Assembly (NCBI RefSeq): GCF_002682985.1
Contig: NZ_MKGN01000007.1
Span: 1 to 13,128, forward strand
Source of the DNA: Candidatus Tremblayella phenacoccinincola
Lineage (GTDB): Bacteria; Pseudomonadota; Gammaproteobacteria; Burkholderiales; Burkholderiaceae
Length of the DNA stretch: 13,128 nt
Reading direction: 5' to 3'
This document shows positions 194 to 12,865 of this stretch, piece after piece. Every line of letters starts with the position of its first letter. The first letter of the stretch is position 1. The translations under genes were made by a program, and so were the position numbers. The notes beneath the pieces are model-generated. The model saw only the letters and a list, made by a program, of their open reading frames with translations. It was not told the origin of the DNA and made no database searches.

Positions 194-1516
194 CTGAAGT
201 ACGCATCTATACCTATATTAGGAAGACCAAACGTTGGGAAAACCACCTTGTTCAACCGCATAATATGTCAACATGGGTCAATAGCATACTGTTTACCAGG
301 TCTTACTGCTGATAGTAGATATGGCATTGGAGCTCTACATCGTAAAAGGTTTGGACTGTACTATGTTCTGGATACTAACGGTTGGGATGTCTACAGTGCC
401 CCTACAGATCAACTTAAGAAGGTAGTTAGTCTTTCCAGTACGGTCATTCTTGTTTTAGATGCTAGAGAGGGTTTATCCACAGGAGACCTTAAGATCTTAA
501 ACTACCTTTCGAGGCTCGACAAGTCCGTTTACGTAGCAATAAACAAGGCAGACCCCAACTACGCTTTTATGAAGAAAGAGTTTAACCACATCGTCTGTAG
601 TTCTTTCTTCGTGTCTTCTGCACATAATATTGGAATTAAAAGAATGATGTACTACATCCTAAGGAATCTCAACCAAGCATTGAATGTTAAAAAAGAGCTA
701 GGAACCAGAAATAGTACCAGAGTAGCAATAGTTGGAAAACCAAATGTTGGTAAATCCACGTTAGTAAATACTTTAGTAGGCTATTACCGTTCGGTAGTGT
801 CTATCGTATCAGGCACCACAAAGGACCCAATCGAAGCTTCTCTTATGTTCAAAGACCATCAATACACAATGATTGATACTGGAGGTCTGAAAAGAAAAGG
901 AACCTCTGAATACTCTGTTGCTAGATGCGTAATCTTAAAAACACTGCAAACCATCCTAACTTCCAATATCGTATTATTGCTGGTTGATGCTCAGCTCGGT
1001 ATAGCAAAACATGACCTAACAGTTATTGACTTTGCACTCAGGAACAACAAAGCTCTAGCTGTTGGGTTTAACAAATGTGATACTGTTAAAGCTTTTAACG
1101 TTAAAGCTAAACTACCTGAACTACAAAGACTTAAAGAGCAGTTTCGTGTATGTGTTTTAGCATTCTCAGCTCTTAAACGGATTGGTCTAAACAGCCTTTT
1201 AGCAACACTACACAGACTAAACAACCTCGCTAACACAAAGATACCAACTATAAAGCTAAATAAGTTGATTGGGGATACTGCTCCTGCTCCAACCATTGAG
1301 GCTTCAACACCCACAACAGCCGCAACATCCGCAAAAGACAAGCTTAAGCTAAACTATATACACCAAGGCGGCTGTAGTCCTTTGGTTCTAGTAGCACATG
1401 GTTCAAACATTAATAAGCTAAACAAAGACTCAAAGAGACATATAAAAGAAACCATAACAGAAATGCTAGGTCTCAATAAGCTTCATATTCATATTAACTT
1501 AAGAAATGTACGTTAG
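194..1516 (+). CDS. der: GTPase Der (EngA): two tandem G domains plus a KH-like C-terminal domain
   Basis: The ORF track gives 248..1516 with a TTG start. G domain 2 has GKPNVGKSTLVN, DTGG and NKCD. G domain 1 has INKAD. The first P-loop, ILGRPNVGKTTLFN, is encoded at 215-256 and so lies partly upstream of TTG 248. The frame is open back to TAG 182-184 and contains no ATG, GTG or TTG. I therefore place the start at CTG 194, which is 9 codons before the G of GRPNVGK, the same spacing as in E. coli Der. The start is uncertain and the end is firm. Confidence 0.85.
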   Translation: MKYASIPILGRPNVGKTTLFNRIICQHGSIAYCLPGLTADSRYGIGALHRKRFGLYYVLDTNGWDVYSAPTDQLKKVVSLSSTVILVLDAREGLSTGDLKILNYLSRLDKSVYVAINKADPNYAFMKKEFNHIVCSSFFVSSAHNIGIKRMMYYILRNLNQALNVKKELGTRNSTRVAIVGKPNVGKSTLVNTLVGYYRSVVSIVSGTTKDPIEASLMFKDHQYTMIDTGGLKRKGTSEYSVARCVILKTLQTILTSNIVLLLVDAQLGIAKHDLTVIDFALRNNKALAVGFNKCDTVKAFNVKAKLPELQRLKEQFRVCVLAFSALKRIGLNSLLATLHRLNNLANTKIPTIKLNKLIGDTAPAPTIEASTPTTAATSAKDKLKLNYIHQGGCSPLVLVAHGSNINKLNKDSKRHIKETITEMLGLNKLHIHINLRNVR

Positions 1517-1572: not shown

Positions 1573-1929
1573 TCATACTAAACACTCTTGTACATTTAGA
1601 ATACCTTTAGCAAAAAGCTCCATGTAATAGCTTTGTGTGGTTTTGTTGTAGTTTAAGCTCTCCTTCAGAATAAGCCTATGGTACAATATTAAATCACAGC
1701 ACACCTGTTTGGAATTAGACCCAAGAGTGCAGAAGGTTAGGATGTTGCCAGGTAATCTGTTGCTTCTATGCTTTTTGTTTAAACGCTTCATCTCTCTAGC
1801 ACCTACATATCTTATGGTAATACCCACAGTATGCTGATCAACTAACTGAAGAGACTCTTTTGTTAACCTGACTGTTGGCAGAATACCAACTAAACCAACG
1901 TCTTCTTCAGACCCATACTGCATATACAT
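1573..1929 (-). CDS. ybeY: YbeY-like endoribonuclease homologue, probably degenerate or inactive (His triad missing)
   Basis: 118 aa. Recalled E. coli YbeY blocks match: GITIRYVGAREMKRLNKKHR vs [26 protein letters not shown] vs TNVLSF, and CDLILY vs GDLVIC. The region that should read HGxLHLxGYDH instead reads AKGILNVQECLV followed by a stop. Confidence 0.55.
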   Translation of the reverse strand: MYMQYGSEEDVGLVGILPTVRLTKESLQLVDQHTVGITIRYVGAREMKRLNKKHRSNRLPGNILTFCTLGSNSKQVCCDLILYHRLILKESLNYNKTTQSYYMELFAKGILNVQECLV

Positions 1930-2015
1930 AGGAGGTTCTCCTGTTATTCTGATTCGAGGTAATGCTATAATAGTTTTAATTATGATAAGCTAACCCTAAA
2001 CCAGATAAAGTCCAC

Positions 2016-2477
2016 ATGAAGAGCATATGTTCTAGTTACTCCTATAAAGTAGTAGTTATTATTGCTCGCTTTAATTACTTTATTAGTAAAACCATATTAA
2101 AAAGCGTAGTAAATACTATTAAGTTAATAGCAGCTATATATAATAAGCCTATAGATATTCTTTGGGTTTCCGGTTCTAATGAGATGCAGCTAATAGTAAA
2201 TAGTTTATTATATAATAAGAGACATAATATTATAATTCCAATAGGTACTATCATTCGAGGAGATACTATACATTTTAAAACAGTAGTTAGTAATTGTAAC
2301 TTAAGCTATAACAATATAACAATAAATAATAAGCTATCAATAACTTCAGGAATGCTAATAACAGATAATATTGATCAAGCTATTGAACGAACAGATCCTA
2401 AAGCTGGATATAAAGGAGCTGAGTCTATTGTTACTATATTAGAGTTAGTTAATATTATGACTAGCAGCTATATATAA
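2016..2477 (+). CDS. ribH: 6,7-dimethyl-8-ribityllumazine synthase
   Basis: 153 aa. IARFNYFI, WVSGSNE, GTIIRGDTIHF and QAIERTDPKAGYKGAE align with E. coli RibH (IARFNNFI, WVPGAYE, GTVIRGGTAHF, QAIERAGTKAGNKGAE). The gene is very AT-rich. Confidence 0.9.
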   Translation: MKSICSSYSYKVVVIIARFNYFISKTILKSVVNTIKLIAAIYNKPIDILWVSGSNEMQLIVNSLLYNKRHNIIIPIGTIIRGDTIHFKTVVSNCNLSYNNITINNKLSITSGMLITDNIDQAIERTDPKAGYKGAESIVTILELVNIMTSSYI

Positions 2478-2492
2478 AGACTAATCTAATAG

Positions 2493-3506
2493 CTAATGCA
2501 TAGATAGGTAATATAGGATATCGTAACATAGCTTTTTAATACCAATATGGTTTATAGATGAAGCTATATAGTATTTAGATTTCCATTCTATTCTTCTTAT
2601 AAACCTATCTACAAGTCTTATTAAAAAGGCCTTATCAGTTATTTTATCTACCTTATTAAAAACTAACCAACAATGCTTTTTTGAAGTTAAGCTATTATAT
2701 TGATATAGTTCATTATTGATAGTTTTAATAGCTTTATATATAAGCGACTCATTCATATGTTTTAAGTCAACAATATGTAATAATAGGCTACATCGATCTA
2801 ATTGTTTTAAAAGCCTAATGCCTAAACCAATACCATTAGAAGCGTCTTCAATTAAACCAGGAATATCAGCAATAATAAACCTGTTATTATATAGCTGAAC
2901 AACTCCTAAAACAGGAAAAGCTGTGGTAAAAGAATAACTAGCTACTTTTGATTTAGCTTTCGAAACAGAGTTAATAAAAGTAGACTTACCAGCATTTGGT
3001 AGTCCTAATATGCCTACATCAGCAGTTAACATTAGTTCCATATGAATATCACATGTTTCTCCAGGGATTCCTTTATTCTTTTGCAGCTTATTAGTTGTTT
3101 TAGTCTTTGAGTTGCCTATACCATGAAGACCACCTTTTGCTACTAAAACCTTTTGACCAACAAAAGACATATCAATAATAAGTAGGTTAGTTTTAATATC
3201 AGTAACTCTTGTTCCTAGGGGTGTTTTTATTAGCATATCTTTTCCTTTCTTTCCAGAACAACTATTTCTTTTACCATTAGTTCCGCTTTCAGCAATATAT
3301 ATCCTTTTGAGTTTAAAGCATAATAAGGTATTTATAGCTTTGTCAGAATATAACCAAACATCACCCCCATTTCCACCATCACCACCATCAGGTATTTTAT
3401 AGTGTATAGCATTCTCTTTTCGAAAAGCTACGCTTCCATTACCTCCAGTTCCAGCTTTGATTGAAATAATAGCTTCATCTATAAAGTTGGTATTTATGTT
3501 CATCAT
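2493..3506 (-). CDS. obg: GTPase Obg/CgtA
   Basis: 337 aa. It has the N-terminal glycine-rich Obg fold (FIDEAIISIKAGTGGNGSVAFRKE, DGGDGGNGGDVW). G-domain motifs are GLPNAGKSTFI, DIPGLIE and NKVD. The long acidic C-terminal tail of E. coli ObgE is absent. The gene is AT-rich. Confidence 0.92.
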   Translation of the reverse strand: MMNINTNFIDEAIISIKAGTGGNGSVAFRKENAIHYKIPDGGDGGNGGDVWLYSDKAINTLLCFKLKRIYIAESGTNGKRNSCSGKKGKDMLIKTPLGTRVTDIKTNLLIIDMSFVGQKVLVAKGGLHGIGNSKTKTTNKLQKNKGIPGETCDIHMELMLTADVGILGLPNAGKSTFINSVSKAKSKVASYSFTTAFPVLGVVQLYNNRFIIADIPGLIEDASNGIGLGIRLLKQLDRCSLLLHIVDLKHMNESLIYKAIKTINNELYQYNSLTSKKHCWLVFNKVDKITDKAFLIRLVDRFIRRIEWKSKYYIASSINHIGIKKLCYDILYYLSMH

Positions 3507-3591: not shown

Positions 3592-4029
3592 TCAGGGTTT
3601 GGTTTCGAACTCTTCGTTAATACAAAAGGTTACTTTGAAGTTGGTCTTTGAGTTGATTGTGTTCCTGTTGATTGTGGCTCTTTTAACCCTAGCAAACGGA
3701 TAGCTGTACATTGTAACACCATTACCAACTTCTAACCCATATACCGCAGCTAACTGCACAAACCAAATCTTAACATTATGGGTTAACCCTGAAAAGCTAG
3801 AACTAAAAGCTAATGCTTCGTTGCTAATGGTAAGCTTTTGTACCGCTTTCCTACTGAGATTAATAACTAGCTCTTCCAGTCTTACTAGGCGGTCTGGTAA
3901 GTTATTGTTAACACTAGGCATAAATAATATACATGGTGTATATCTATTACTGATGCACCATTGGTATATCGAATACACGACCGTAGCTTCAATATTAAAT
4001 CTGCTGTACATTAGGTTAGCTCTATACAT
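3592..4029 (-). CDS. sspB: Stringent starvation protein B (ClpXP specificity adaptor) homologue
   Basis: 145 aa. VVYSIYQWCISNRYTPCILF aligns with E. coli LLRAFYEWLLDNQLTPHLVV. LVINLSRKAVQKLTISNEALAFSSSFSG..V..AAVYGLEVGNGVTM aligns with IVLNIAPRAVGNLELANDEVRFNARFGG..V..LAIYARENGAGTMF. The stretch upstream of ATG 4029 is purine-rich. An alternative ATG lies at 4011. Confidence 0.7.
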   Translation of the reverse strand: MYRANLMYSRFNIEATVVYSIYQWCISNRYTPCILFMPSVNNNLPDRLVRLEELVINLSRKAVQKLTISNEALAFSSSFSGLTHNVKIWFVQLAAVYGLEVGNGVTMYSYPFARVKRATINRNTINSKTNFKVTFCINEEFETKP

Positions 4030-4052
4030 TGGCTTCTCTCACCCTCTCCGTC

Positions 4053-5720
4053 TTAAACAGTAACTGAACCAAAGCTAGACTGGTTAACTACTTCAGCATA
4101 TCTTTTAAGAATGCCTCTTCTGTTCTCAACTATTGGTAACCTCCATAGCTTTCGTCGTTTCAATAGGACAGGGTTGCTCACATGTAGATGTATAAGAGCT
4201 TCTGATAAGTCAACTGTTATCAAGTCGTTGTTCTTAACCAAAGCAATAGGTCCTCCAACAAAGGCTTCAGGGGCAACATGTCCTACTACTATACCCCAAG
4301 AACCACCAGAAAACCTACCGTCAGTGATCAAACATACTTTATCTCCAAGGCCTTTACCAACTAAAGCAGAAGTAGGAGAGAGCATCTCAGGCATTCCAGG
4401 ACCCCCTTTAGGACCAAGGTACCTTATTATTACAATGTTGCCAGCTGTAACACTATCGTCCAATATTGACTTGGTTGTGCTCTCTTCGTCGTTGAATACT
4501 TTGGCTCTACCAGTAATGGATCTCCGTTTGACACCTAATGTTTTGGCTACTGCTCCAAACACTGCAAGATTACCTTTTAAAACTAGTAGATGTCCTTGTT
4601 GGTGTAATGGCTTGTTGATTGGTAGTATAACATTGTATATACATTGGGTAGCAAGCTTAATCCTATTGAGTTCTTCTCCTAAAGTACGTCCGGTAACGGT
4701 GGCACATGCTTTGTGCAGTAACTCTTGAGATGATAGTCTTTTCAAAACCTGAGGAATACCTCCAACGTTGTGTAGATCAGTAGTTGCATGGGTTCCTGAA
4801 GGCTTTAGGTTGCATGTCACTGGGGTTCTCTTTCTTATTGTTTCTATGTCGTCTAACGTTAATCTAACTCGAACGCTGTTTGCAATGGCAAGGTAGTGTA
4901 GAATAGCATTTGTTGAGCCACCAATGTACAATACAACAGTAATTGCGTTTTCAACTGCCTTTCTTGTAATCAGTATGGTTGGGTTAACACCTAATCTTAA
5001 GAGCTTCATTAAATACTTTGCAGACAGGCGAGAGGAACGGATCTTTTCAGTAGTTGGGTTTGCCATCGTTGAAGAATAAAACAGAGAGATACCTAACGAT
5101 TCGAATGAAGCACTCATAGTGTTTGCAGTATACATGCCTCCACAAGAACCTGTAGTAGGGCAAGAATGCTTCTCTATTTCTGTAAAGTCTTCATGTGTAA
5201 GAGCCTGTGTGTTGAGCTTTCCTACTGCTTCAAACGAAGAAACAATGGTAAGCGCCTTTCCTTTCCAGTAGCCAGGCAAGATAGTACCCCCATAGATATA
5301 TATGCTAGGAACGTTAACTCTTATTAGAGCCATCAAGCCACCAGGCAGATTCTTATCGCAGCCTCCCACCACAATAAGACCATCCATGCTTTGGCCTAGC
5401 GCACACACTTCTATACTATCTGCAATCACTTCCCTAGAGACTAAAGAATATCTCATTCCTGAAGTACCCATAGAAATGCCATCAGAAACAGTTGGAACTC
5501 CAAAAGACTGAGCTATGGTTCCATGTCGGTTAAGAAGGTTACTTACAGTGGTTGTTATCCTTTGTAGACCAGCATTACAAGGGGTAATAGTGGAATATCC
5601 GTTAGCTATACCAACTATTGGTTTCTTAAACTCCTTTAAGCTACATCCTAATGCGTAGAACATAGACCTGTTTGCAGTTCTAACATAACCTTTTGTAACG
5701 CTCTTGGAGTTGTACTTCAT
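4053..5720 (-). CDS. ilvD: Dihydroxy-acid dehydratase (short, ~555-aa subfamily)
   Basis: 555 aa. STITPCNAG, SDGISMGTSGMRYSLVSREVIADSIE, GGCDKNLPG, CPTTGSCGGMYTANTM, GGSTNAILHYLAIA, LGPKGGPGMPEML and ITDGRFSGGSWG are all present. The Fe-S ligand cysteines are retained. Confidence 0.97.
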   Translation of the reverse strand: MKYNSKSVTKGYVRTANRSMFYALGCSLKEFKKPIVGIANGYSTITPCNAGLQRITTTVSNLLNRHGTIAQSFGVPTVSDGISMGTSGMRYSLVSREVIADSIEVCALGQSMDGLIVVGGCDKNLPGGLMALIRVNVPSIYIYGGTILPGYWKGKALTIVSSFEAVGKLNTQALTHEDFTEIEKHSCPTTGSCGGMYTANTMSASFESLGISLFYSSTMANPTTEKIRSSRLSAKYLMKLLRLGVNPTILITRKAVENAITVVLYIGGSTNAILHYLAIANSVRVRLTLDDIETIRKRTPVTCNLKPSGTHATTDLHNVGGIPQVLKRLSSQELLHKACATVTGRTLGEELNRIKLATQCIYNVILPINKPLHQQGHLLVLKGNLAVFGAVAKTLGVKRRSITGRAKVFNDEESTTKSILDDSVTAGNIVIIRYLGPKGGPGMPEMLSPTSALVGKGLGDKVCLITDGRFSGGSWGIVVGHVAPEAFVGGPIALVKNNDLITVDLSEALIHLHVSNPVLLKRRKLWRLPIVENRRGILKRYAEVVNQSSFGSVTV

Positions 5721-5862: not shown

Positions 5863-6195
5863 CTACATTACAAAGGAAGAACCGCAATGACAAGTAGAAG
5901 CGGTACTTGGTGTATAGACTATATAATAAGACCCGTCAATACTACTTCTATAGTCAATGACTGCATTGTTAAGATACTGTAAGCTAATGCAGTCTACAAT
6001 GAAGCTAACTGTCCTTTTTACAAATGCTAAGTCATCCCCACATTGCTTCTCGACAAGTGCAAACATGTATTGAAGACCAGCACAGCCTCCCCCAAGAACA
6101 AATACTCTAAGCTTTAAGTTTGGGTTGCTTTTCTCTTGTATGACTTGGCACATATGTTTTGTTGAATTATCTGTGAAGGTTAACATACAGCTCAT
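5863..6195 (-). CDS. erpA: Iron-sulfur cluster insertion protein, A-type carrier (ErpA-like)
   Basis: 110 aa. [20 protein letters not shown] and the C-terminal STCHCGSSF match E. coli ErpA [20 protein letters not shown] and STCGCGSSF. The start ATG overlaps the rpsI stop (TAATG). Confidence 0.8.
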   Translation of the reverse strand: [110 protein letters not shown]

Positions 6196-6593
6196 TATCT
6201 TTTTGAGAACTGCTTTTGTTTCCTAGCCTTATGAAGACCACACTTTTTCCTTTCTACTTCTCTTGGGTCTCTAGTCAGAAATCCTTGTTTGGCAAGTGGT
6301 TGTTTAAATGATGAACTAATCTTAACGAGAGCTCTGGATAAACCAAGCCTGATAGAGGCAATCTGTCCACATTTACCACCACCTTTAACTGTTGCTTTAA
6401 GTAGAAAGGAGCGCTTAGTATCTAGTTGATGTATGAGTTGGTGTAACATATCGATATGTTTATGGTTTGTAAAGTAGGTATTCAGGAGTATTCCATTTAC
6501 CAGCATTACATTCTTAACGCTTTCCCTAATAAAGACTCTTGCGGTAGATCTTTTTCTTCGACCAGTTCCATAATACCAGATGTCCATGCCCAT
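6195..6593 (-). CDS. rpsI: 30S ribosomal protein S9
   Basis: 132 aa. YYGTGRRKRSTARVF, TVKGGGKCGQ and the C-terminal RDPREVERKKCGLHKARKQKQFSKR match bacterial S9. GGAG lies 6 nt upstream of the ATG. Confidence 0.97.
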   Translation of the reverse strand: MGMDIWYYGTGRRKRSTARVFIRESVKNVMLVNGILLNTYFTNHKHIDMLHQLIHQLDTKRSFLLKATVKGGGKCGQIASIRLGLSRALVKISSSFKQPLAKQGFLTRDPREVERKKCGLHKARKQKQFSKR

Positions 6594-6751: not shown

Positions 6752-7714
6752 CTAACATTCGACACAGACTCGCTTTTCGATGTATTGTGTTAGCTCCTGT
6801 GTAGCCTTTCTGAACGTATAGACCCCGTTTATTAGGTTTTTGTATGCGTTGACATTTTGTTTTAATGCTCTATAAAAGAACTCTTGACTCCAGATTGGTT
6901 TCAGGTCTATGGGTTGTTTGCGTATATGACTAACACTTAAAACAGATGTTGGTAGTAAACGATGTGTATTCTTGAGATCCAAGAAGATATCAGGACTTAG
7001 AGTTACATAGTCACACCCAGTTACAGATAGAGCTTGTTCAATAGACCTAAAGCTTGCTGCCATTAGTTTAGTGTTGTAGTTGTTATGTTTGAAATATTGA
7101 TACACTTGTTCAAGAAACTGAACACCTACATCTAAAGACTCATTCTGTTTTTTGCAGTTAGAGGTTAAGCTTGTGTACATATCAGAAACACGACCTACAA
7201 ATGGAGAAATGAGATATGCTTTTGATTCACCACACAAAACTGCTTGAGCTAAAGAAAATACCAACGTCATATTGCATCTTACGTTCTTTTTCCTAGCTAA
7301 CCTTAATACTTGAATTCCTTCCCAAGTAGCAGGCACCTTAATCAGAACTCTGTCCTGTATATTAAACGAATTGCACAACATTAAGACTTCAGCTATTTGT
7401 TCCATAGATTCTTCAACATTAAAAGCATAGTCAGCGTTCAATTCAATTGAAACTGTTCCAGGTATATATTTTAGGATTTCATTGCCAAGATGTACTAAGA
7501 TCTGGTTTATTATTTCAGAAGTAGTGTAAGCTTTGTATGTTGAAATTACCCCATCTATAAACGCTAAGCACTCTTTGTCTTTTGTTGCTTTTAGAATCAA
7601 CGAAGGGTTCGTAGTAACATCGTTCGGATGGAGCTTTGCTACTTCTAGAAAGTTTCCACTGTCCAAAGCAACTGTTGTGTATTTTTTTAGATACTCTAAA
7701 GCATTCATGTTCAT
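6752..7714 (-). CDS. tal: Transaldolase (TalB type)
   Basis: 320 aa. YTTVALDSGN, DVTTNPSLILKA, VLIKVPATWEGIQ (Schiff-base Lys context), CNMTLVFSLAQA, LISPFVGRV and ASFRSIEQ align with E. coli TalB. Confidence 0.93.
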   Translation of the reverse strand: MNMNALEYLKKYTTVALDSGNFLEVAKLHPNDVTTNPSLILKATKDKECLAFIDGVISTYKAYTTSEIINQILVHLGNEILKYIPGTVSIELNADYAFNVEESMEQIAEVLMLCNSFNIQDRVLIKVPATWEGIQVLRLARKKNVRCNMTLVFSLAQAVLCGESKAYLISPFVGRVSDMYTSLTSNCKKQNESLDVGVQFLEQVYQYFKHNNYNTKLMAASFRSIEQALSVTGCDYVTLSPDIFLDLKNTHRLLPTSVLSVSHIRKQPIDLKPIWSQEFFYRALKQNVNAYKNLINGVYTFRKATQELTQYIEKRVCVEC

Positions 7715-7721
7715 TCTTTTG

Positions 7722-7726
7722 TCCTT
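7722..7726 (-). promoter_or_regulatory. Shine-Dalgarno-like sequence for tal
   Basis: The minus strand reads AAGGA, then 7 nt, then the ATG at 7714. Confidence 0.45.
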
Positions 7727-7825
7727 AGCTCTATGTTAACTGCTCTTTCGGGTTTAACTGACGGTGTAATCTTAATACTTCTGGACTATGTAGAGCTGCT
7801 AAACAGACGAATATAGAACACCTAG

Positions 7826-8383
7826 CTAAAGACTAAGCATTTCAGCTTCTTTACTTAAAGCTATATTATTAACTTTCTTTATAAGACAGTCAGTAATAGT
7901 TTGTATCTTTATTTGAAAAGCTTCCATATTATCTTTACTAAGCAGTTTCTTTTTAAATAGGTCTTTTAGTTTATTATTAAACATACGTCTTGTATTTCGT
8001 ATAGTAACTCTTACTTTCTCAGCTTCATTATGAACCAGCTTAACTAAACTATATCTATAGGTTTCAGAAAGGTCTGGAAATAAGATACGAATTAAGTTGG
8101 TTTCTAGATAAGGAACTAATCCTAAGTTAGCAGCAATAATGCTTTTATTTATTATTGGGTTTAGTGAGTTATCAAATGCAGTAATAATTACAGACTTTGT
8201 GGACTCTAAAGAAATAGTTGCTAGCTGACGTATAGATGTTAGCTTATTATTATACATTATTTTGATTCCATTAAGTAAGTCAGGAGAAGCTTTTCCTGTT
8301 CTATAGCTGTTAATAGTCCTTATAAAAGAATCTATATATTTACCTGCTTGAAGTTCATAGTCTTTACATATGTTTGTATTCAA
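7826..8383 (-). CDS. frr: Ribosome recycling factor
   Basis: 185 aa with a TTG start. (M)NTNICKDYE aligns residue for residue with E. coli MISDIRKDAE. RTGKASPDLLNGI, IRQLATISLE and VRVTIRNTRR also match. AGGAG lies 10 nt upstream. The gene is AT-rich. Confidence 0.93.
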   Translation of the reverse strand: MNTNICKDYELQAGKYIDSFIRTINSYRTGKASPDLLNGIKIMYNNKLTSIRQLATISLESTKSVIITAFDNSLNPIINKSIIAANLGLVPYLETNLIRILFPDLSETYRYSLVKLVHNEAEKVRVTIRNTRRMFNNKLKDLFKKKLLSKDNMEAFQIKIQTITDCLIKKVNNIALSKEAEMLSL

Positions 8384-8393
8384 GGTTATTGTG

Positions 8394-8398
8394 CTCCT
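8394..8398 (-). promoter_or_regulatory. Shine-Dalgarno sequence for frr
   Basis: The minus strand reads AGGAG, then 10 nt, then the TTG start at 8383. Confidence 0.6.
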
Positions 8399-8436
8399 AT
8401 TAAAACGAGGTTACAATTAACAATAGCCTGCCTACT

Positions 8437-9828
8437 TCAACTATAATTATCAAAACGAGACAGCTGGCCATTAAACCTTAATTTAATAGTTCCAGTTGGT
8501 CCATTTCGTTGCTTTCCAATAATAACTTCTGCTATTCCATGAAGACCTGTATTAACATATTCACGATACACTTCGTCTCGATATATAAACATTATTAGGT
8601 CAGCATCTTGTTCAATCGAACCAGACTCGCGTAGATCTGAATTAATTGGACGTTTATCTACTCTCTGTTCTAGGTTTCTATTTAGCTGTGAAAGTGCCAG
8701 TATAGGTACTTGTAGTTCTTTAGCTAAAGCTTTTAATGAACGTGAAACCTCAGCAATTTCTAATGATCTATTTTCTGATAATGACGGCACTTTCATTAGC
8801 TGCATATAGTCTACCATAATTAAACTAAGACCGTTCGCTTCTCGGTATATACGGTTAGCTCTTGTTCTTAAATCTGTATGTTTTAAGTCAGGAGAGTCGT
8901 CAATATATAGGTTCTTCTTTTTTAAGAGCATATTCATAGTATTAGAAAGCTTTGTCCAGTCGTTTCTATCCAACTGACCAGTCCTTATAGATGTTTGGTT
9001 AATCTTTGATAAAGAAGCTAATATTCTTATCATTATTTGGTCACTAGGCATTTCTAAACTAAATATTAACACTGGCTTATCTTCATTAACAACAGCATTT
9101 TCACATATATTTAAAGCTAAAGTTGTTTTACCCATTGAAGGTCTTGCCGCAATGATAATTAAGTCAGACTTTTGTAATCCACATGTTTTTATATCTAACT
9201 CATAATACCCACTAGAAATGCCAGTAATACCTTTTTTAGGACTTTTATATGCTTTTTCTATATTAATAACTGTTTTCCCTAATATATTATCAATAGGTTT
9301 AGGACCATTGGATTTATTAATTCTATACTCAGCTATTTGAGATAGTTTTGACTCAGCTATTGCCAATAACTCAGAGCTACTTCTTCCTTTCGGGTTATAG
9401 CTATTGTTAATTAGTTCTTGAGATGTTTTGATCAACTCTCGTTTTATTGCTCTATCTTTAACAATAGCGGCATATTCTAATATGTTGGCAGTGTTTGTAA
9501 TTGTAATGGGTTTATATAGAACAGCTAAATAAGAAGGACCACCAATCATAGTTAACTTACCTTTTTGTTCTAATGAGTCGGAAAGCGTAATAAGATCAAT
9601 TGGTTTATGGGAATCTAATAATAACTTCATTTCATTATATATTAGCCTATGGGTTCTTTTCATGAAGTCTTGCTCTGAAATAACAGATGCTATTTCATCC
9701 CATATATTATTATCTACCATTAGACAGCCTAATATTGTTTGTTCTGCTTCTAAAGAGTGTGGTAATGTCTTCATATATTCTTTTCTATGGATAGGTTCTA
9801 GCATATTATATACTTCTGGAACAGCCAA
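8437..9828 (-). CDS. dnaB: Replicative DNA helicase DnaB
   Basis: 463 aa. LPHSLEAEQTILGCLMVDN, Walker A AARPSMGKTTLALN, FSLEMP, LKALAKELQVPILALSQLNR, RESGSIEQDADLIMFIYRDE and IIGKQRNGPTG are present. The ORF-track start is TTG 9828. In-frame ATGs 8 and 18 codons downstream are also possible starts. The gene is AT-rich. Confidence 0.95.
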   Translation of the reverse strand: MAVPEVYNMLEPIHRKEYMKTLPHSLEAEQTILGCLMVDNNIWDEIASVISEQDFMKRTHRLIYNEMKLLLDSHKPIDLITLSDSLEQKGKLTMIGGPSYLAVLYKPITITNTANILEYAAIVKDRAIKRELIKTSQELINNSYNPKGRSSSELLAIAESKLSQIAEYRINKSNGPKPIDNILGKTVINIEKAYKSPKKGITGISSGYYELDIKTCGLQKSDLIIIAARPSMGKTTLALNICENAVVNEDKPVLIFSLEMPSDQIMIRILASLSKINQTSIRTGQLDRNDWTKLSNTMNMLLKKKNLYIDDSPDLKHTDLRTRANRIYREANGLSLIMVDYMQLMKVPSLSENRSLEIAEVSRSLKALAKELQVPILALSQLNRNLEQRVDKRPINSDLRESGSIEQDADLIMFIYRDEVYREYVNTGLHGIAEVIIGKQRNGPTGTIKLRFNGQLSRFDNYS

Positions 9829-9866
9829 AACAACATATGCTAATAAGAAAGATGGGTTAACATGAG

Positions 9867-10130
9867 TTAGTTATTACGAAGCACCATTCGAACATCTACC
9901 AGCTTTCTAGAAGCATTCCAGTAATATCTCACTACTCCTTTAGACAATGCGAACAAGGTGTGGTCTTTTCCAGCACCTACGTTTTTACCAGGGTGGATCT
10001 TTGTGCCTCTCTGACGTACAACAATGGAACCTGGCATTACTAAGACCCCACTGTAAGCTTTGATTCCTAGTCTCTTGGATCTCGAGTCTCTATTGTTCCT
10101 AGTAGCACCGCCTGCTTTCTTTTGGGCCAT
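9867..10130 (-). CDS. rpmA: 50S ribosomal protein L27
   Basis: 87 aa. [41 protein letters not shown] and GKDHTLFAL match bacterial L27. Confidence 0.96.
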
Positions 10131-10522
10131 GTTAGTTTCTGGGTAGTCTGAATGGTTGTCACAATAATTTCAGTACGTAGGCTTCTGTAACCTTGGCTCT
10201 TCATGTAATGCTTTCTTCTTTTGTGCTTTAGGATAGATATCTTTTTGGACTTGAAGTGTCTTGAAACCATTGCAACTACACGGACTCCTGATAATGTAGG
10301 TTGTCCAATGTGAACTTTGTTACAATGTATATGGAGGAGCACACTATGTAGATAAAACAGCCTACCTTCTGGTAAACCCATTCGATCTACGACCACTCTT
10401 TTGTTTACCTGTGTCTTATACTGCTTGCCGTTTAGCTTTATTATAGCGTAGTCTAACCTGTGTCCATAAATAGTCCCGCTCTGAAGTAGCATACATTTTA
10501 GTTGTTCTTCTTGTTCGTTCAT
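10067..10522 (-). CDS. rplU: 50S ribosomal protein L21 with atypical N- and C-terminal extensions
   Basis: The ORF is 151 aa, against roughly 103 aa for typical L21. The core [14 protein letters not shown]...[25 protein letters not shown] matches L21 (MYAIIKTGGKQYKV...KFRRRKHYRKQQGHRQ). The codon where the canonical ATG should be is GAC (10451-10453). Initiation must therefore occur at ATG 10492 or ATG 10522. The frame does not stop until 10067, which is 64 nt inside rpmA. Confidence 0.85.
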
Positions 10523-10531
10523 TGGAATTCA

Positions 10532-10598
10532 GGCTATAGGTTATAGGAGGAAGGTTTAGGTGGCTATAGGATATAGGAAGTAGGTTTAGGTGGCTAGG
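10532..10598. repeat. 30-bp tandem repeat, 2.2 copies, spanning the secA stop and the secA-rplU spacer
   Basis: Unit 1 is 10532-10561, ggctataggttataggaggaaggtttaggt. Unit 2 is 10562-10591, ggctataggatataggaagtaggtttaggt; aligning the two needs about 3 substitutions and a 1-nt indel. A partial third unit, ggctagg, occupies 10592-10598. Each unit contains an internal (c)tatagg sub-repeat. Confidence 0.9.
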
Positions 10599-12865
10599 CT
10601 TCCTACTTCTGACAGGCATAGAACATCGAGAACTAAATAAGCGACCATTCGTTTAAGTAGGTTCAAAGTGTTCTGAATGTATTGTTTGTGGGCTTTGTTG
10701 AAAGGTTGAAAGCTTAAGTTTATGCTCCAAAGAACGCTGTTTAAAAACCTAAGGTGATTCGTCCATATTGAATCTATTGAACCTAATAATAAGCATTTCT
10801 CCAGCTCTTTTCTCTTTTGTAATCCTGAGACTTCAATACAGGCCAAGTGATTTAGATTAACTAAGAACCTAAACCAAGATATCGAATATACAGTTCCTTT
10901 AAAAAGAGTTAAGCTCAATACTTTTAAGAACTGCTTTGGGGAATATATATAGCATTTGACTGGCCACTTCTTGGTTTTGAGTGCAAAGGCTTCTGACTGG
11001 CTTTTGGAGGTTAGCTTTCTTCTCAGCTTATGTAATGTAAGTCTTTGGAAATCCAAGATGTTGTTGAAGTTTGCTAATTGTGTTTTTTGGTATAAGCTTT
11101 TAGCTTGAGTTCTTTTTTGAATGGTTTCAATGGCTTGAGCAAACTTAGCTTGAGCAAGCTTACTTTCGGGATTTACGAGTAGCCTATTTAGCTGTCTGTC
11201 TTTTAAGGACACATAAAAACAGGAAGTACCAACATCTCCTTGTCTCCCAGACCTACCGATTAGCTGTACTTCAGGTTTTCTTAGATTATGCCTACCAATG
11301 CCGATAACTCTTAGACCGCCTAACCTTTTGGATTTGATGTATATTTGGTCTTTGGGTTGGTTGTGATCAAAGTATAATAAACCCCCTAACAAAATGTCTG
11401 TTCCTCTACATGCAATACAGGTCGTTATAGATAGTTTATTTGGTATTCCAGCGTTTGCAACAACTATAGGTTCTAACAGCTGGCTTTTAGCATTCAGTAT
11501 TTCGTGGGGAAACCCAATGTAGCTTAACATAACAGAAGTCCCTTCAGACTGTTCTACCGATTGTGTTCCAACTAAGGCTGGTTGACCACGTTTATAACAA
11601 CTCTGAATGTCTCTGATAACAGCTATACTCCTATCGCGAGGCGACATGTATATTCTGTCTGGCTCATCAACCCTGCCTTGTGGACTGTTTGTTGGAATAA
11701 CGACAGTTTTCAGATTGTACAGGTTTTTGAGCTCTTGTGTTTCGTTCGCAGTTCCTGTTATCCCTGATAGCCTACTATACATTCTAAAGTAAGGCTGGAG
11801 CACTACCTGAGATATAGCCTGGCTGTCTTTCCTTGCTTTGATTCCTTCTTTTGCTTCGACAGCCAGATGTATTCCATTGGACCAACGTTTGTTAGGTAGA
11901 AGTCTACCTGTTAAGTTAGCAATAATTATTGCTTCTCCGTTGCGGATAATATAGTCTCTATCTTTACTAACTGTTTTGTAAGTCTTTAGCATTACGCACA
12001 TCATAGTTATTAGAAGGTAGCTTTTGGACGTATATAGCTGTTTCCCGGTTCTAATGAGATTAGCGTTTACTAATAAGCTTTCAGTCTTAATAAAGCCTAG
12101 CTCAGTTAAATGCAGTTGTTTAGGTTGGTTGGAGTAATATAGGTTTCGGCTAGGAAAAGCTTTATTGGTTTCAAATACATATAACTTAATAAGCTTGTTC
12201 ACATATGTATAAAGGCTTGTTCTATAGTTAGAAGTGGAGGCAATGAAAGGTGTTCCAGCTTCATCTATTAAAATAGAGTCAACCTCATCAACTATCACTA
12301 TCGAGCAGGCTTGCTTTCTCCTTTGAACATATTCTTGATTCTTATATACCATGTGGTCTTGTATATAGTCAAATATATGTTCACTGAAAGAGACGTAAGT
12401 AATATCTGAATTGTATGTTGTTCTTTTTGAACTGTTAGCCAGGTTTGCAACAGCTTTACCTACTGAGGTTCCTAAGTACTCAAATACGATCTGTGTTAGG
12501 ACACTGTCCCTTTTTGTAAGATGGTCACTTGGAACTACAATGAGCACTCCTGAGTTGAACAGTGAGCAGGCAAAAGAAGCAACTGCAACTGCTAATGTTT
12601 TACCTTCTCCTGTCTTCATTTCCACTGCTTTGCCACTACATAATGCAAGTCCTCCTAGTAACTGAGTATCATGTAGTTTAAACCCTATTAACCTACAACA
12701 AGTCTCTTTAAACAACCCAAAAGCATATGGGAGAGCTTTGTTAAAAGATACGTTTGATTTCAAGTGAAGCTTAAGCACATTCGTTTTAAGTTTGAATGCT
12801 ATGCCTTTCAGGTATTTAAAGTAAGAACCTAACCCAAGGATTCTCGTTGTATATTCTTTTAGCAT
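10586..12865 (-). CDS. secA: Preprotein translocase ATPase SecA (shortened and derived)
   Basis: 759 aa. MKTGEGKTL (Walker A), VDEVDSILIDEAGTPFI (DEAD region), GRSGRQGDVG and DSIWTNHLRFL are present. The protein ends just after the helical scaffold domain. The C-terminal linker and zinc finger are absent. Confidence 0.95.
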   Translation of the reverse strand: MLKEYTTRILGLGSYFKYLKGIAFKLKTNVLKLHLKSNVSFNKALPYAFGLFKETCCRLIGFKLHDTQLLGGLALCSGKAVEMKTGEGKTLAVAVASFACSLFNSGVLIVVPSDHLTKRDSVLTQIVFEYLGTSVGKAVANLANSSKRTTYNSDITYVSFSEHIFDYIQDHMVYKNQEYVQRRKQACSIVIVDEVDSILIDEAGTPFIASTSNYRTSLYTYVNKLIKLYVFETNKAFPSRNLYYSNQPKQLHLTELGFIKTESLLVNANLIRTGKQLYTSKSYLLITMMCVMLKTYKTVSKDRDYIIRNGEAIIIANLTGRLLPNKRWSNGIHLAVEAKEGIKARKDSQAISQVVLQPYFRMYSRLSGITGTANETQELKNLYNLKTVVIPTNSPQGRVDEPDRIYMSPRDRSIAVIRDIQSCYKRGQPALVGTQSVEQSEGTSVMLSYIGFPHEILNAKSQLLEPIVVANAGIPNKLSITTCIACRGTDILLGGLLYFDHNQPKDQIYIKSKRLGGLRVIGIGRHNLRKPEVQLIGRSGRQGDVGTSCFYVSLKDRQLNRLLVNPESKLAQAKFAQAIETIQKRTQAKSLYQKTQLANFNNILDFQRLTLHKLRRKLTSKSQSEAFALKTKKWPVKCYIYSPKQFLKVLSLTLFKGTVYSISWFRFLVNLNHLACIEVSGLQKRKELEKCLLLGSIDSIWTNHLRFLNSVLWSINLSFQPFNKAHKQYIQNTLNLLKRMVAYLVLDVLCLSEVGSLAT

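Follow-up and report, generated by a model that had tools for sequence, protein, structure and literature searches.

Very Probable Gammaproteobacterial Origin of an frr-dnaB Block in the Mosaic Genome of 'Candidatus Tremblaya phenacola' PPER

Introduction

The genome of 'Candidatus Tremblaya phenacola' strain PPER was reportedly described by Gil et al. in 2018 (ISME J 12:124) as a 'collage' of betaproteobacterial (beta) and gammaproteobacterial (gamma) genes. The present work concerns one contig of this organism, NZ_MKGN01000007.1, analyzed at its full length of 13,128 bp (hereafter, the window), and within it a low-G+C block at positions 7826-9828 (island B), which consists of frr, encoding the ribosome recycling factor (RRF), and dnaB, encoding the replicative helicase. 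Island B is very probably a gamma-derived patch of the beta/gamma mosaic genome of PPER. In the published account, Sodalis-allied gamma genes and beta genes are interspersed in PPER, and the gamma genes have a lower GC content and distinct codon usage (PMC5664097). The window comes from the same organism and, by the order of locus tags, from the same contig; nothing substantive differs.

The nearest described relative is strain PSOL, which is likewise a chimera and in synteny with PPER (Bai et al. 2024, PMC11014885); its orthologous block, peg2 to peg11, has the order secA, rplU, rpmA, dnaB, frr, tal ... ilvD. PSOL differs from PPER in its host, P. solenopsis, in nucleotide sequence (10-16% divergence), and in junction spacer lengths (38 vs. 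112 nucleotides (nt)). In both strains, 45-46% of the genes are of gamma origin and redundancy is scarce (PMC11014885, PMC5664097). Consortia of the T. princeps/Moranella type resemble PPER in combining Tremblaya with a Sodalis-allied gamma partner that complements lost translation and replication genes; however, their genomes reside in separate nested cells, whereas the gamma and beta genes of PPER lie on one DNA molecule. PPER is among the very few documented mergers of two bacterial genomes from different classes, and essential parts of its replication and translation machineries that differ in ancestry must cooperate.

Island B shares with a classical genomic island its deviant composition and an affinity unlike that of its flanks. 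Unlike a classical mobile island, it is accompanied by no integrase-like open reading frame (ORF) among the 14 genes of the window, no tRNA, and no direct repeats, and its cargo is essential housekeeping genes that probably replace native copies, whereas classical islands add accessory functions. The phenomenon itself is already known, since publications have covered both the compositional signature (GC and codon usage) and the gammaproteobacterial descent of dnaB. Added here are gene-level statistics for the contig, a comparison of the junctions with a PSOL-like assembly, and a possible dnaB relic in a third lineage.

Source Genome and Codon Classes

The 14 genes of the window were identified from the ORF list, NCBIfam scans, and searches against solved structures. 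The window has a G+C content of 36.6%, and the PPER assembly comprises 23 contigs with 218,932 bp and 35.6% GC (Table S4, PMC11014885). The window belongs to PPER because its gene order fits the locus tags TPPER_00056 to TPPER_00069 (Table S5, PMC11014885) and because the NCBI RRF and transaldolase that are 100% identical to those of the window are both named Candidatus Tremblaya phenacola. Among these tags, Table S5 lists TPPER_00058 as a rib gene, TPPER_00061 as ilvD, TPPER_00063 as rpsI, TPPER_00066 as dnaB, TPPER_00067 as rpmA, TPPER_00068 as rplU, and TPPER_00069 as secA (PMC11014885), in exactly the order seen in the window.

The G+C content at third codon positions (GC3) divides the genes into two discrete classes, as the sequence-only reading of the window had anticipated. 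The low class includes ribH (2016-2477, plus strand; 0.183) and obg (2493-3506, minus strand; 0.190), which form island A, together with frr (7826-8383, minus strand; 0.189) and dnaB (8437-9828, minus strand; 0.218). The remaining ten genes range from 0.318 to 0.414, and no gene falls into the gap from 0.22 to 0.32. GC1 and GC2 (first and second codon positions) are likewise lower in frr, dnaB, ribH, and obg. At third positions, island B has 136/648 G or C against 239/690 in the four nearest flank genes (Fisher p = 2.7e-8). The hand-counted G+C values of five 60-nt stretches (17/60, 20/60, and 12/60 inside island B; 22/60 and 29/60 in the flanks) all proved exact on recount.

Synonymous codon usage separates the low from the high class (G-test, p = 2.7e-18), and island B taken by itself also differs from the high class (p = 4.9e-8). 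Control tests on two splits of the ten high-class genes gave p = 0.73 and p = 0.71, i.e., this class is homogeneous. In the leave-one-out test, all 14 genes were nearer to their own class. The earlier proposal that islands A and B form one codon-usage class apart from the other ten genes is borne out by the low-versus-high G-test and the leave-one-out assignments; between the two islands the difference is marginal (p = 0.034). The window resolves the mosaic gene by gene, and the mosaic is detectable by composition alone.

Affinity of dnaB

The window DnaB was compared with GTDB species represented by one genome each, which gave 598 confirmed relatives; lineage counts cover the best 80 of these matches, and all 80 are Gammaproteobacteria. 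Three Sodalis genomes lead the ranking with 65% identity; Yersinia, Erwinia, Serratia, and others come after them. In the comparison with solved structures, the four best full-length matches reach 579-588 bits (E. coli DnaB has 588), far ahead of the next full-length one with 349. The protein matches TIGR00665 with 526.6 bits over residues 22-462, above the cutoff of 385.25, i.e., as a full-length family member. By these rankings, DnaB appears Sodalis/Enterobacterales-like, and the published supplement lists dnaB (TPPER_00066) as gamma and as the sole dnaB in Table S5 (PMC11014885).

The longest dnaB ORF (463 amino acids (aa)) begins with TTG, as does that of frr, in agreement with the sequence-only reading. 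For dnaB this start is doubtful, because the sequence resembles other DnaB proteins only from residue 14-19 onward and its 5' end lacks conservation in L082, a 6,564-bp Logan assembly of run SRR13503347 that represents a PSOL-like strain. The ORF also has ATG at residues 9 and 19, which would be alternative starts. In L083 (Logan, SRR33549362), a third T. phenacola-like lineage whose RRF is 76% identical to that of the window, the 3' end of dnaB lies directly upstream of frr. Just the last ~15 dnaB codons (KLRFNGQLPRFDNCF*) are recognizable there, and neither a long ORF nor any resemblance to dnaB is found in the 350 bp before them. This remnant (L083 1-435) may be either a relic or the product of a poor short contig.

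Affinity of frr

The window RRF is highly diverged, and a word-indexed search reached only five proteins. Exact look-ups of the PSOL RRF (P0002) and of the window DnaB in the contig index gave no match. The window RRF matches TIGR00496 over its full length with 133.3 bits, below the cutoff of 149.1, residues 13-184 being aligned to profile positions 4-175 of 176; E. coli RRF is matched at E = 2e-38, aligned over residues 3-183, and PF01765 is precomputed for a protein identical to the window RRF. By these matches, the protein would be a diverged but clear RRF. An exhaustive search was run against a library of 1.84 billion representative proteins. After the PSOL orthologue, the top representative (P0246, 139 bits) is 64% identical to E. 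coli RRF, the second non-Tremblaya match (P0247, 134 bits) has 100% identity with residues 3-183 of E. coli RRF, and the next one (P0248) reaches 98% identity to E. coli RRF. A name look-up of 20 representatives yielded four named clusters, all of them gamma: Buchnera, Blochmannia, Steroidobacteraceae, and a Gammaproteobacteria metagenome-assembled genome (MAG). Against solved structures, E. coli RRF scores 135 bits, the next 120, and all remaining ones 94 or less. Taken at face value, these rankings place the protein closest to Enterobacterales RRF.

The resemblance to E. coli RRF claimed by the sequence-only reading holds, since the E. coli motifs it quoted match the real E. coli sequence and the best non-Tremblaya matches are from Enterobacterales. 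The motif RTGRAH, considered as a marker of Burkholderia or other beta RRFs, was discarded, as gamma MAGs, those of Steroidobacteraceae among them, carry it; ten of the 20 representatives looked up had been picked for this motif, and none of the 20 is beta.

On the minus strand, the spacer between dnaB and frr (8384-8436) carries an AGGAG Shine-Dalgarno box 11 nt upstream of the frr TTG. The motif AGGAGCACA..TTG is kept in L082 and L083, and the rest of this spacer is variable. The TTG is probably the true start of frr, because the AGGAG box and the TTG are conserved, the product has 185 aa, like E. coli RRF, and the alignment with the latter begins at residue 3. Table S5 of the published supplement lists TPPER_00065 as a second rpsI, of gamma origin (PMC11014885); by tag order this locus is frr, which is otherwise missing from that table, and the entry is a probable mislabel.

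No homologue of frr was found within 10 kb on either side of dnaB in any of 80 gammaproteobacterial loci. The frr-dnaB adjacency is therefore derived, and the suggestion that island B is itself rearranged is upheld.

Affinity of Island A and tal

The sequence-only reading had assigned island B to the same class as island A. In addition to the low GC3 and the codon usage that the two share, this is supported by the gamma-like Obg, which scores 331 bits against E. coli ObgE and 240 bits against the Obg of a Burkholderiaceae MAG (L084). The best solved structure for RibH is Salmonella RibH, and ribH is listed as gamma (PMC11014885).

The opposite affinity is found for tal (6752-7714, minus strand; GC3 0.322), which encodes transaldolase and forms the left flank of island B. 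Among named relatives, T. phenacola PAVE is nearest to it (42%), and Roseateles/Pelomonas, Oxalobacter, Mitsuaria, and Burkholderia come next (37-40%). In local comparisons it scores 259 bits against PAVE (41% identity) vs. 181 bits against the gamma symbiont Westeberhardia (36%). On this evidence, tal appears Tremblaya/Burkholderiales-like. In the non-chimeric strain PAVE (L081, CP003982.1 155354-170756), tal lies between aspS and an aminoacyl-tRNA synthetase/dapB. The PAVE neighborhood was tried as a model of the ancestral beta arrangement and rejected, as it is not syntenic and contains none of the neighbors seen in the window. These differing neighbors imply that the beta backbone has been heavily rearranged between PAVE and PPER.

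Origin of the Patch

Island B is best explained as a gamma-derived patch of the mosaic. PPER, apparently the only symbiont in the bacteriome of the mealybug Phenacoccus peruvianus, would owe its ~219-kb mosaic genome to the fusion of the genomes of a Sodalis-allied gammaproteobacterium and Tremblaya, after which gene shuffling and then the loss of redundant copies would have left one mosaic. In this process, frr and dnaB from the gamma partner would have been set, in the same orientation, between the beta genes tal and rplU-rpmA, and the gamma genes would have kept the more AT-rich synonymous codon usage of their donor. The two genes are probably the sole working copies of these essential functions, so that a gamma helicase and a gamma recycling factor would serve a largely beta replication and translation apparatus. 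We infer, in part from the literature, that whole genomes fused and that beta copies are absent elsewhere; the fusion is also supported by a preprint (bioRxiv 10.1101/2024.10.23.619971).

Several points weigh against this explanation. The gamma placement of RRF and DnaB comes from the ranking of best hits, among which there is no named beta sequence, and not from a tree. Proteins of AT-rich endosymbionts attract each other, which may inflate the RRF matches to Buchnera and Blochmannia, although the match to E. coli RRF is itself not AT-biased. In the right flank, L27 and L21 are not assignable by similarity, and the published tables disagree on rplU. Finally, one window alone cannot separate fusion from serial gene transfer.

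The latter alternative would have frr-dnaB and, separately, ribH-obg entering Tremblaya piecemeal, as small horizontal transfers from a co-resident gamma symbiont. It is in keeping with the distribution of the gamma genes, which occupy two small two-gene patches amounting to ~27% of the window, and the finding that frr and dnaB are neighbors in none of the 80 gamma genomes would fit independent insertions. However, a reported share of 45-46% gamma genes, with little redundancy, would be hard to reach gene by gene without mobile elements, and the patches show no integrase, tRNA, or flanking repeats. We regard piecemeal transfer as quite unlikely.

Linkage and Age of the Junctions

Island B lies between a left junction of 111 nt, where gamma frr meets beta tal (7715-7825), and a right junction of 38 nt, where beta rpmA meets gamma dnaB (9829-9866). 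Dynamic-programming segmentation of raw GC gave two low segments, 1961-3360 (28.6%) and 7061-9880 (32.4%). A recursive single-binary-split segmentation made no split, a procedure with little power on a low-high-low-high pattern. The right raw-GC edge, at ~9880, is at most 15 bp from the 9829-9866 spacer, and the left edge, at ~7060, falls inside tal. A chimeric tal was considered as the cause of the latter edge and ruled out, as GC3 is uniform (~0.32) across the full length of the gene; the ~7060 edge therefore reflects the amino-acid composition of tal (GC1/GC2). At the codon level, the left boundary is the 111-nt tal/frr spacer, across which GC3 steps from 0.19 to 0.32. Both boundaries had been placed in these spacers from the sequence alone, and both stand, the right one by raw GC and the left one by the GC3 step.

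The PSOL-like assembly L082 has the order secA-rplU-rpmA-dnaB-frr-tal with the same orientation as the window. The two sequences are colinear with 84-90% nucleotide identity; coding regions are 84-95% identical, and the spacers vary in length. The RRF and L27 encoded by L082 share 98-99% identity with their PSOL counterparts at NCBI. The tal/frr spacer is 55% identical between the two, with indels, and the rpmA/dnaB spacer, which has 112 nt in L082, is barely alignable. The six genes common to L082 and the window are all intact, with ratios of nonsynonymous to synonymous divergence (dN/dS, Nei-Gojobori) of 0.21-0.41. The synonymous divergence (dS) of dnaB and frr amounts to 0.33-0.38, that of the flank genes to 0.14-0.36. 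Because dS differs little between the two gene classes and dN/dS stays at 0.21-0.41, both have been diverging jointly, with purifying selection acting on them, from a time before PPER and PSOL split, and the junctions are old, real, and functional. No visible convergence of the two codon classes was observed between PPER and the PSOL-like strain at a dS of ~0.3, which could serve to calibrate the rate of amelioration of acquired genes in a repair-poor genome.

These observations bear on whether reads of Tremblaya and of a separate AT-rich gamma co-symbiont had been joined in silico. The PPER assembly is in 23 contigs and the junctions fall in short spacers, as a chimeric assembly would have it. 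Still, the same junctions and the same order recur in an independent Sequence Read Archive (SRA) assembly of a strain diverged by 10-16% in nucleotide sequence, the two gene classes have comparable dS values, and synteny between PSOL and PPER has been published (PMC11014885). With the junctions conserved in L082, it is therefore very unlikely that two separate genomes were co-assembled, and the chance that an assembly chimera explains island B is practically nil. Equally negligible is the idea that all 14 genes descend vertically within Tremblaya and that four became AT-richer by weaker selection or lower expression: GC does vary among genes of tiny symbiont genomes, and GC1 and GC2 are lower too in the four genes, but the homology results contradict it, with DnaB 65% identical to Sodalis, Obg favoring gamma over beta (331 vs. 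240 bits), and tal showing the reverse affinity, and GC3 is discontinuous rather than graded.

Within the preferred explanation of a gamma-derived patch, the position of the right junction can be compared with the rplU-rpmA-obg cluster, which is near-universal. In the Burkholderiaceae MAG L084 (5622-8678), the order is L21-L27-Obg-ProB. In the window, rplU-rpmA is cut exactly where obg would follow, and dnaB-frr stands there; the sole obg of the window is gamma-type and located ~6 kb away in island A. On a rather improbable reading, the rpmA/dnaB junction might be a recombination scar at a cluster carried by both parents. If it were true that homologous operons acted as crossover points, the breakpoints of the mosaic would be predictable. 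A scan for junction repeats found none at either junction, and scans for repeats, promoters, and terminators near the junctions gave nothing over the background.

Flanking Genes and Other Features of the Window

The right flank of island B is formed by rpmA (9867-10130, minus strand; GC3 0.414), encoding L27, and rplU (10067-10522, minus strand; GC3 0.384), encoding L21, both of the high-GC3 class. L27, which is short and conserved, scores 98.6 bits against L084 vs. 92.3 bits against E. coli, and its named matches are taxonomically mixed (Alphaproteobacteria, Sulfurimonas, Buchnera, and Burkholderiaceae). Its motifs KAY.G and LFAL match the single beta L27 compared, that of L084. L21, also short, scores 62 bits against L084 and 52 bits against E. 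coli. Both proteins were dropped as phylogenetic markers, being too short and conserved for placement by similarity, and the description of L27 as beta-like rests mainly on its codon class and on the published assignment. In Table S5, rpmA is beta in both PPER and PSOL, rplU is assigned to beta for PPER but to gamma for PSOL, and secA, ilvD, and rpsI are listed as beta (PMC11014885). The two rplU products are assigned differently despite 85% protein identity, and this conflict is a probable mislabel in the published supplement.

The L21 ORF (151 aa) is extended at both ends, and its core, matched to TIGR00061, spans residues 25-124. The 3' tail of rplU overlaps the first 64 nt of rpmA (10067-10130) in another frame; no other stretch is as well conserved between the window and L082 as this overlap, which has 95% nucleotide identity. 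The NCBI L27 for this contig (P0127) has 56 aa and starts at an internal Met, whereas the 87-aa ORF aligns with solved L27 structures from residue 1. The deposited annotation thus probably truncates the functionally important N-terminus.

Beyond rplU lies secA (10586-12865, minus strand; GC3 0.345). The secA/rplU spacer is filled by two tandem copies (10532-10591) of the 30-nt unit GGCTATAGGTTATAGGAGGAAGGTTTAGGT, which are 90% identical; in the alignment with L082, this spacer takes up 118 columns with only 30% identity. On the other side of island B, beyond tal, are rpsI (6195-6593; GC3 0.318), erpA (5863-6195), ilvD (4053-5720), and sspB (3592-4029), all on the minus strand; island A follows, and then ybeY (1573-1929, minus strand) and der (248-1516, plus strand). 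The sspB/ilvD spacer (4030-4052, 23 nt) has 61% GC and is the GC-richest stretch of the contig.

Several readily identified proteins score under the curated NCBIfam cutoffs (in brackets): Der with 278 bits (307), YbeY with 27 (45), Tal with 254 (396), RRF with 133 (149), and SecA with 534 (814). In SecA (759 aa), the final ~130 residues have no match to any SecA profile. Such sub-cutoff scores reflect the strong erosion of proteins that typifies tiny symbiont genomes, and both ancestry classes are affected.

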